Below, piece by piece: positions 57,612 to 58,912 of a stretch of DNA of 60,281 nt. The position numbers were made by a program, and so were the translations under genes. Source of the DNA: an uncultured Muribaculaceae bacterium (lineage in GTDB: Bacteria; Bacillota_I; Bacilli_A; RF39; UBA660); contig CAYSFO010000002.1 of NCBI GenBank assembly GCA_964430695.1, positions 1 to 60,281 on the forward strand, given 5' to 3'. The notes under the pieces are model-generated. The model did no database searches, was not told where the DNA came from, and was given only the letters and a program-made list of their open reading frames with translations. The first letter of the stretch is position 1; each line of letters starts with the position of its first letter.

Positions 57612-58912
57612 GATAACACCCATGGCTTTGCCTTTGTTCCAGATCCACTAGCCGCCGCGACTCCAGCCTTTAGAGTAACGATAGGGCGAAGATAAGCATA
57701 GGAGTAGGTGGGGCTATCGTACAAGGAACCCCAGTTACTGCCGACTAGGGAGCTATTAACCACGTCCCCATCAGGATAAACGACACGTCCGTTGAAGTAC
57801 GAGTACTGATCGTCAAGTGACTGAAAGAAACGGGAAGCTAACCAGTAAATAGTTGCAGTCGTTGTGGCAGTTACTTTATTCGCTACCAATGTTCCTACTG
57901 CTGTTTTTACTAATTCGGTATCTGTTTCATATTCTATATCTCCACATCCACTTGTTTCTTTACTATTATCTGTTGTATGACTTGTTCCACATGTTTCTTT
58001 GGATAATGTTGCTGTTAGAAATTCTGTTTGACCATTGAATCCCATATGTCTTGTTGTGAGTGTATATTCATAGTTAGCATATAGACTTGCTAACGTATTT
58101 AGTGCTCCAACGAAATTTTTATACCCTGTTTGTCCATTAAATGTAACTGCTGTACTTGATACATATTCGGATACCATTTCGATTGTTCCATCATTATTAA
58201 TTCGAATGATTCTCCATAGTTTTAGTTCACTCGGTTTGATAGTAACAGTACTTGTATGTCCAGTGAGAGCTTTTGGTACAACATAAGAAGCTATGGTTGG
58301 TGTCATTTGGACATACTCTCCTACTTGAGCAGTTGCTGCTAGTCCTGTTTTCGTAGTTGCCGTTGTATCTCCTACACATCCTTTCGTTCCTTTTACCCCA
58401 AATATTGTGACTCCACAAGCTATATTTCCTGCTTTTAAGTTACTATCTCCTTTGATTGTTTGTGCTCCACTTAGGTATTGACTTGCACTTATTGTTTGAT
58501 TACTTGTTCCTGGGGTATAGGTTGATGCTCCTTTGCTTGGTATTGTTCCCGTTACTTTTGCTCCATTTACATACGCTGTTTTATCTTTTAGTATTTGTGC
58601 TGCTGTTGCATCTGCATCACTTGTATAGGTTCCTGTGACTCCTCCTATACTTTGGCCTTGTGCTATTTTTGATGCTGGTATTTCTAATGTTCCTACTACT
58701 AACTTTCCTTGCACATACGCACTCTTTCCACTTAGAATACTATCTGCTGTCGCATCTCCACTTGTACTACATATATTTAAGCTCCCATTTAATTCATCTA
58801 ATGCACTTGTTACTGTATCCTCTTGGTATAGAACTTCATCACTTGTTATTGCTTTTACTTGTGGTATTGTTATTAATGTTATTAATATTATTGTTTTTAT
58901 TATCCTTTTCAT
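57608..58912 (-). CDS. secreted surface protein, paralogue 1: signal peptide, tail-fibre-like GDATA..IL.GK.AYV.G..V.GT repeats, lectin-like C-terminal domain with variable loop
   Basis: 434 aa. Signal peptide MKRIIKTIILITLITIPQVKA. Three A-A--IL-GK-AYV-G repeats. KLWRIIRINNDGTIEMVSEYV core. C-terminal YWLASR...[46 variable aa]...LRPIVTLK...GSGTKAKPWVLS. Confidence 0.8.
   Translation of the reverse strand: MKRIIKTIILITLITIPQVKAITSDEVLYQEDTVTSALDELNGSLNICSTSGDATADSILSGKSAYVQGKLVVGTLEIPASKIAQGQSIGGVTGTYTSDADATAAQILKDKTAYVNGAKVTGTIPSKGASTYTPGTSNQTISASQYLSGAQTIKGDSNLKAGNIACGVTIFGVKGTKGCVGDTTATTKTGLAATAQVGEYVQMTPTIASYVVPKALTGHTSTVTIKPSELKLWRIIRINNDGTIEMVSEYVSSTAVTFNGQTGYKNFVGALNTLASLYANYEYTLTTRHMGFNGQTEFLTATLSKETCGTSHTTDNSKETSGCGDIEYETDTELVKTAVGTLVANKVTATTTATIYWLASRFFQSLDDQYSYFNGRVVYPDGDVVNSSLVGSNWGSLYDSPTYSYAYLRPIVTLKAGVAAASGSGTKAKPWVLS

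Follow-up and report, generated by a model that had tools for sequence, protein, structure and literature searches.

Two tandem paralogous genes lie on the minus strand at the right end of contig CAYSFO010000002.1, a chromosomal sequence of 60,281 nt and 29% GC (0.288) from an uncultured bacterium; the stretch analyzed is this one entire contig, referred to here as the window. Close to the 3′ end of the first gene, 27 codons ahead of the stop and between conserved flanks, is a segment of 46 codons (57692-57829, here VR1) that is most probably a variable region (VR) written by a diversity-generating retroelement (DGR), within a remote or orphan target belonging to a previously unannotated protein family; the cognate template repeat (TR) and reverse transcriptase (RT) would lie off the contig or have been lost. 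This segment and its counterpart in the second gene (59200-59331, VR2) are best read as remote DGR targets, whether currently used or abandoned only recently. This reading is supported, at the level of sequence, by both homology and composition. A DGR variable region had already been proposed in a preliminary description of the locus, and the proposal is borne out insofar as homologs in relatives adjoin DGR cassettes, the VR limits coincide with those seen there, and adenine is depleted at synonymous sites; the window itself, however, contains neither TR nor RT.

Divergence and composition of the variable regions

The products of the two genes are 82% identical, and nucleotide identity in the segments flanking the VRs is 79-94% (D3 94%, D4 85%, D7 79%). 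VR1 and VR2, in contrast, share only 50% of their nucleotides when codon-aligned, with a two-codon indel and with 30, 22, and 30 differences at codon positions 1, 2, and 3, respectively; they are the sole strongly divergent parts of both genes. Turnover since the duplication has therefore been confined to the VR. The preliminary description had called the two segments unalignable, which is a fair statement for the pair, but both turn out to fit a scaffold shared across the whole family.

The hypervariable, GC-rich, and NNC-rich character attributed to VR1 was readily confirmed. Its GC content is 0.49 and that of VR2 0.48, compared with 0.36-0.38 in the rest of the same genes and 0.288 in the window, and the top-ranked 138-nt GC windows of the 60-kb sequence all fall inside the two VR regions. 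Codons ending in A make up 58% of those upstream, but 7% in VR1 and 0% in VR2; for codons ending in C, the corresponding values are 8%, 43% (20/46, as originally counted), and 48%. The original count for the 18 codons immediately upstream, a single one ending in C, needs to be revised to three (GCC, TAC, TCC). Overall A content is 0.20-0.22 in the VRs versus 0.41-0.43 in the rest of the gene, the footprint that was looked for as a mark of adenine mutagenesis. Synonymous sites are included in the shift: in two-fold boxes ending in a pyrimidine (Y), 24/41 VR codons end in C, versus 15/143 in the rest of the genes (Fisher p = 9e-10) and 691/4359 in the window as background, while in four-fold boxes only 3/39 VR codons end in A, versus 242/352 in the rest of the genes. 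Since synonymous sites are affected to this degree, selection on amino acids cannot explain the change in composition.

The protein family and associated retroelement cassettes

Both paralogs are members of a large multicopy family found in metagenome-assembled genomes (MAGs) of uncultured gut Bacilli and “Tenericutes.” The C-terminal 244 aa of the paralogue 1 product matched the representatives of 838 clusters defined at 50% identity, with E ≤ 1e-10 for 486, and scans of genomes and metagenomes yielded 158 family loci, mostly from gut or rumen MAGs labeled Bacilli, Tenericutes, or Erysipelotrichaceae; 6-14 loci often come from one MAG, and many are at contig ends. In paralogue 1, an N-terminal hydrophobic signal or anchor is followed by stalk repeats (SGKxAYVxGxxVTGT / ATYTPGTSNQTIxAxQYLSGAQTIKGD) and then by a globular C-terminal domain of 244 aa that holds the VR. 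Across the family this domain almost invariably forms the very C-terminus and is preceded by stalks of widely differing length. The stalk module also occurs separately: dozens of proteins of ~490 aa (P0022-P0054) resemble the window protein in their N-terminal stalk repeats and nowhere else. Their contigs are strikingly uniform in length (~14 kb) and may represent small genomes of phages, or of phage-like elements, that use this module.

The VR-bearing domain itself has no match in Pfam, PHROG, or NCBIfam, and no consistent Pfam hit was obtained among 29 family members. An AlphaFold2 (AF2) model of it is of high predicted quality (predicted local distance difference test score, pLDDT, 93.7; predicted template modeling score, pTM, 0.91) and has the VR occupying four to five antiparallel strands at the C-terminus. 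Foldseek comparison of the model at E ≤ 0.001 gave no matches in the PDB (best 0.22) or in BFVD (best 5e-3, to an unnamed protein of 1436 aa), and a hidden Markov model (HMM) search of the domain against PDB sequences gave nothing at E ≤ 10. The suggestion of a C-type-lectin or formylglycine-generating enzyme (FGE)-like fold, made in the preliminary description, is thus unconfirmed. Resemblance to other DGR targets is at the level of a motif only, [YW]W[LW]xS ... [AG][VIL]RP, with similar motifs at two further loci recovered in the scans (TGWWWTKS...GARPAL in L007, WLASP...NAVRP in the TR of L159).

When the segments between YW[LIM]ASR and RP[IV] are compared across loci, they form two classes, one of ordinary AT-rich composition and one with the signature of the window VRs. 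The second class comprises 19 VRs, the two in the window and those of 15 other loci, with A in at most 0.13 of third codon positions (A3 ≤ 0.13) and C in 0.33-0.59 (C3).

It is in relatives with this signature that DGR cassettes can be found beside family members. At locus L097, the family gene lies upstream of, and on the same strand as, genes for a MutS_I-domain protein and Avd, a TR, and an RT (Table 1), the last followed by a second MutS_I protein. Of the mismatches between TR and VR, 33/40 are at TR adenines; within a 145-nt core, this is true of every mismatch (27/27), and 27/45 template adenines are substituted. Locus L059 has the same gene order, with 20/29 TR-VR mismatches at A, while at L092 an Avd gene and a TR, and at L022 a MutS-like gene, are followed by the contig end. 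The components are identified by matches to RVT_1 (2.8e-14), MutS_I (1e-6 to 7e-8), the PHROG “Avd protein of DGR” (3.6e-11), and the NCBIfam model DivGenRetAVD (9.5e-7). On this evidence from gene order and sequence, the family in related gut Bacilli is a target of DGRs of the MutS-like/Avd type.

The cassettes also bear directly on the window VRs. In L097 and L059, TR-VR homology runs from the LASR codons to the Arg of RP, and the hypervariable segment of the window is bounded at exactly the same points. All three TRs (L097, L059, and L092) encode an Asn-rich template (e.g., YFNYNSSTNWNFNGRSVNTNGSLNNNNLYNYNSGSFNTNNNSNAIRP), and when these TRs, rather than one belonging to the window, were compared at family level with the VRs of other loci, including the window, column entropy among the VRs was 2.49 bits at TR-Asn columns versus 1.19 bits at non-Asn columns (p = 3e-7). 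The non-Asn scaffold is retained in both window VRs, most clearly in VR2.

A nearby cassette is the exception in this family. Only 4/19 signature-bearing VRs have one adjacent, and 11/19 are followed by at least 3 kb of downstream sequence without a cassette, some of them also having 10 kb upstream without one; remote targets are therefore the rule, and the absence of RT and TR from the window’s contig is in turn weak evidence against a DGR origin. L003 and L014, on different contigs of one MAG, differ at 15 and 16 sites in codon positions 1 and 2, compared with 8 in position 3, a pattern that would be expected for one TR acting in trans. Both remote targets and MutS-like accessory genes are established features of DGRs (Wu et al., 2018, PMC5758913).

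In the mechanism proposed for the window, a TR rich in AAC/AAT codons would be transcribed and then copied by the DGR RT with misincorporation opposite template adenines; the resulting cDNA would replace the VR between the YWLASR codons and the RP codon. Asn codons would in this way be turned into NNC/NNY codons (Tyr, Ser, Asp, Gly, His, Ile, and others) on the distal β-sheet face of the C-terminal domain, with scaffold codons left unchanged (F, Y, SST, W, G-R, V, T-G, L-Y, A-[IVL]-RP). We infer that the window VRs were written by an element elsewhere in the genome, acting either in trans or from just past the contig end at 60281.

Some further retroelements were encountered in the course of the scans. 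The RTs of L097 and L059 carry the motifs IGFMTSQ...YQDD, in which the catalytic motif, usually Y[AMV]DD, reads YQDD. This YQDD clade is very abundant in gut metagenomes (~2000 matches); most matches are on contigs of 1-3 kb, as would be expected if assemblies break at DGR cassettes. L007, from a genome that also holds family members, has at 19598-20738 a 5′-truncated DGR-type RT (IGLPLGNQSSQ...YMDD) followed by a different type of target gene, the source of the TGWWWTKS...GARPAL motif above. Although the genome is AT-rich, this gene has a VR-like stretch rich in GC, and the locus represents a second DGR that has partly decayed. At L159 (GCA_948983825.1, CARGUS010000158.1), an unrelated small contig, positions 1017-2405 and 2630-2760 contain a MutS_I gene, an RT, and a minus-strand AAC-rich TR-like sequence encoding WLASPNNNNGNNELNVNGNNGYFNNNNVDNNSNAVRPL; this is another DGR of the MutS-like type, with a shorter type of VR, and a gene with an XRE-type helix-turn-helix (HTH) lies at 105-365. 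The L159 RT contig, from NCBI, was considered as the source cassette for the window VRs and rejected, as a different DGR with an incompatible TR.

Explanations for the variable regions and comparison with known systems

A number of observations weigh against a DGR origin for the window VRs. In the window, a repeat search found no TR, and a scan accepting “VR base or A” at each position returned only the VR segments and A-rich background (at most 107/138); no RT was found there by YxDD/SQ motif scan or by phmmer/jackhmmer with the L059 RT, and the latter programs likewise found no Avd or MutS-like genes with the corresponding L059 proteins. A search of viral contigs with degenerate “TR-compatible” IUPAC patterns, whose design was flawed, returned poly-A runs only. 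One TR for both VRs can be rejected from the two-codon indel and the 30 third-position differences; there must therefore be two different TRs, or at least one VR is no longer rewritten. Compared with VR2, VR1 is a poorer fit to the family scaffold, and no other VR resembles it at the nucleotide level. The organism itself is absent from the genome and metagenome collections searched, where the best relative is 49% identical, and the close homologs P0002-P0015 have VRs of several lengths, which is a misfit. At L059, a second family gene directly after the RT is not matched by the TR (66 mismatches, 29 at A) and is of ordinary composition, so family membership and proximity to an RT do not guarantee targeting. 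There are also decayed elements in relatives, as indicated by the truncated L007 RT and by non-A mismatches in the TR-VR pairs of L059 and L092. Finally, DNA folds of the 3′ flanks gave no consistent stable hairpin, and no initiation of mutagenic homing (IMH) element was recognized in them; an Rfam scan of the window gave no matches. The GC-rich stretch GGAGTCGCGGCGGCTAGTGG downstream of VR1, likened to an IMH in the preliminary description, is not supported in this role: it simply encodes GVAAAS in paralogue 1, its counterpart in paralogue 2 (GVSASS) is lower in GC, and it is conserved neither there nor in the family. The GC-rich Ala codons of the C-terminal tail are specific to paralogue 1, and the stretch sits downstream of the point at which TR-VR homology ends in relatives.

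Much of this could also be accommodated if the VRs are relics, written by an ancestral DGR which has since been lost, or which no longer targets these paralogs, with the signature eroding slowly under AT-biased mutation. The lack of TR and RT in 60 kb, the indel and third-position differences between VR1 and VR2, the departure of VR1 from the scaffold, the differing VR lengths of P0002-P0015, and the decay seen in relatives would all fit such a history. It is nevertheless a tentative alternative: the signature is still extreme for a genome of 29% GC (A-ending codons 0-7%, versus 58% in the same genes), the VRs have diverged far beyond their flanks after duplication, and, with most same-signature VRs of the family lacking an adjacent cassette, absence from one contig tells little. 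Another possibility dispenses with retroelements altogether, and has ordinary paralogs diverging under diversifying selection on a binding loop while gene conversion keeps their flanks alike. The family is indeed multicopy, many of its members have a variable loop of ordinary AT-rich composition, and there are indels among the loops; but amino-acid selection could not move third positions from A/T to C within just these 46 codons (the two-fold box comparison above), the variable columns match Asn codons of known TRs, and the limits of the segment match those of TR-VR homology in relatives, all of which make this explanation quite improbable. The sharp-edged local GC jump (~36% to ~49%) might instead suggest that a GC-richer foreign segment recombined into both paralogs. 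This is hardly credible, given that a jump of this kind is found at matching protein positions in no fewer than 15 other loci, which come from different species and differ from one another in sequence; that the two paralogs hold unrelated segments; and that the enrichment is codon-phased (NNC/NNY, A3 near 0) rather than a general rise in GC.

Among known systems, the Bordetella phage BPP-1 DGR (Mtd, Avd, TR, Brt) offers several parallels to a DGR-written VR in the window: its VR falls within the final ~70 codons of the target ORF, NNC codons arise from AAC-rich TR codons, and fixed scaffold residues are interleaved with variable ones. It differs in being a phage tail-fiber system with one adjacent target, in the C-type-lectin fold of Mtd, which was not recovered for the window domain, and in having an experimentally defined IMH and hairpin, of which none is recognizable at the window locus. 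A comparison of function only can be made with the Vsp/Vlp surface families of the Mycoplasma type, which are likewise multicopy, N-terminally anchored surface proteins of low-GC Bacilli/Mollicutes-like organisms. Poly-G tracts in front of family genes at L007 add to the likeness. In the Vsp/Vlp families, however, variation comes from phase switching and recombination rather than from templated adenine mutagenesis, and they have no sequence relationship to the window family.

Closer analogies exist for the cassettes in relatives and for their remote targets. DGRs containing a MutS-like gene make up “Architecture D” of Wu et al. (2018, NAR 46:11; PMC5758913), the Legionella DGR being one example. 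L097 and L059 agree with this architecture in having a small MutS_I-domain protein, Avd, TR, and RT on one strand, the target upstream, and adenine-specific mismatches; they differ in their unannotated target domain family, the YQDD motif of the RT, and, in L097, two MutS-like genes flanking the RT, while the window lacks all of its components. The chromosomal, non-phage DGR of Treponema denticola serves TvpA and seven remote paralogous targets (PMC5758913). Its dispersed paralogous surface proteins, targeted in trans, can be likened to the cassette-free VRs of this family (11/19) and to the shared template pattern of L003 and L014, although its accessory gene is of HRDC type and its targets are FGE-type C-type lectins, whereas the family cassettes are MutS-like and the fold is unassigned; in the window’s genome, moreover, trans action is inferred only.

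If the window VRs are DGR-written, a hypermutation target will have been identified from raw sequence alone and tied to a sizeable unannotated family in uncultured gut Bacilli, giving a functional handle on these proteins in the form of a predicted diversified ligand-binding face. Points of interest are how large yet anonymous the family is, how far remote targets predominate in it, the MutS-like cassette architecture, and a scaffold that is possibly not a recognizable C-type lectin. With most signature VRs far from any cassette, the majority of targets would escape DGR surveys confined to the vicinity of RTs; such orphans could be sought by the codon-phased signature, in which A3 is near 0 and C3 high within an AT-rich genome. 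A more ambitious and, taken as a whole, doubtful model is that the 244-aa domain is an undescribed, non-C-type-lectin DGR scaffold, and that one or two DGRs of the MutS-like type serve at least 10 dispersed paralogs per genome in trans, so that templated hypermutation is layered on a multigene family and possibly on phase variation by promoter poly-G tracts. All of this together, if true, would be a bacterial analog of combinatorial antigenic variation, and a new fold tolerating DGR mutagenesis would widen the small set of known DGR scaffolds.

Poly-G tracts of the kind just mentioned were observed in L007: 10 G at 9722-9731 and 9 G at 19044-19052, each immediately upstream of a TTATAAT −10-like box. 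They front a family gene and a shorter gene sharing its N-terminus, and lie within a duplicated promoter/leader of ~250 nt (D5-D7), which suggests slipped-strand phase variation of family genes.

Coordinates and neighboring features

The features of the window locus and of the L097 cassette are listed in Table 1.

Table 1. Positions of the paralogs, variable regions, and neighboring gene in the window, and of the DGR cassette at L097
Sequence	Feature	Position	Strand	Remarks
Window	Paralogue 1	57608..58912	-	complete gene, 434 aa
Window	Paralogue 1 N-terminal signal peptide or membrane anchor (MKRIIKTIILITLITIPQVKA)	58850..58912	-	read from sequence; putative cleavage site
Window	VR1 hypervariable core, 46 codons FFQSL...SYAY	57692..57829	-	adenine-depleted, NNC/NNY-rich
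Window	VR1 predicted full extent, YWLASR codons to Arg codon of RPI	57686..57847	-	predicted from limits of L097 and L059 TR-VR homology
Window	Paralogue 1 conserved C-terminal tail (LRPIVTLKAGVAAASGSGTKAKPWVLS, then stop)	57608..57691	-	includes GC-rich stretch; protein-level conservation across family
Window	Paralogue 2	59116..60281 (59116->60281)	-	5′ end cut by contig end
Window	VR2 hypervariable core, 44 codons IFYYISS...HYVA	59200..59331	-	A-ending codons 0%, C-ending 48%
Window	HTH_3 (XRE-type) regulator gene, 67 aa	57420..57623	-	neighbor of paralogue 1
L097	Family gene	248-1237 (VR 1025-1156)		upstream of cassette, same strand
L097	MutS_I-domain protein	1241-1741		same strand
L097	Avd	1770-2075		same strand
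L097	TR, 170-nt repeat of VR	2084-2253		same strand
L097	Reverse transcriptase	2372-3319		same strand; second MutS_I protein after RT

Between the start codon of the XRE-type gene and the stop of paralogue 1 there is an overlap of 16 nt; this arrangement suggests that the regulator is translationally coupled to the variable protein or co-transcribed with it. Elsewhere the window carries tsaE, tsaB, rimI, tsaD, and an LCP-family gene, and a gene for a dockerin/SH3 protein is just downstream of the paralogue locus.

Two other features of the window may be of independent interest. The exact 13-mer GGGGGTTTTGGAA occurs three times on the plus strand (20418-20430, 46367-46379, 57170-57182), versus 0.01 expected. 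Two copies are within a repeat of ~200 nt (20332-20540, 46281-46483; 83-89% identity) that has a hairpin and encodes a 22-aa hydrophobic mini-ORF (MSKKDFLITILLLIIILLIIFG, then stop); the third precedes a ribosome-binding site and a 28-aa hydrophobic mini-ORF at 57201-57287, ~320 nt downstream of the paralogue 1 stop. No Rfam match was obtained; possibly the elements make up a small module, of membrane-peptide or toxin-like type, whose copies share a regulatory motif. The second feature is an ORF of 1391 aa on the minus strand (7874-12049), with several internal direct repeats of 237/555-nt periodicity (families D1, D2, D5); its product is probably a large repetitive surface protein.

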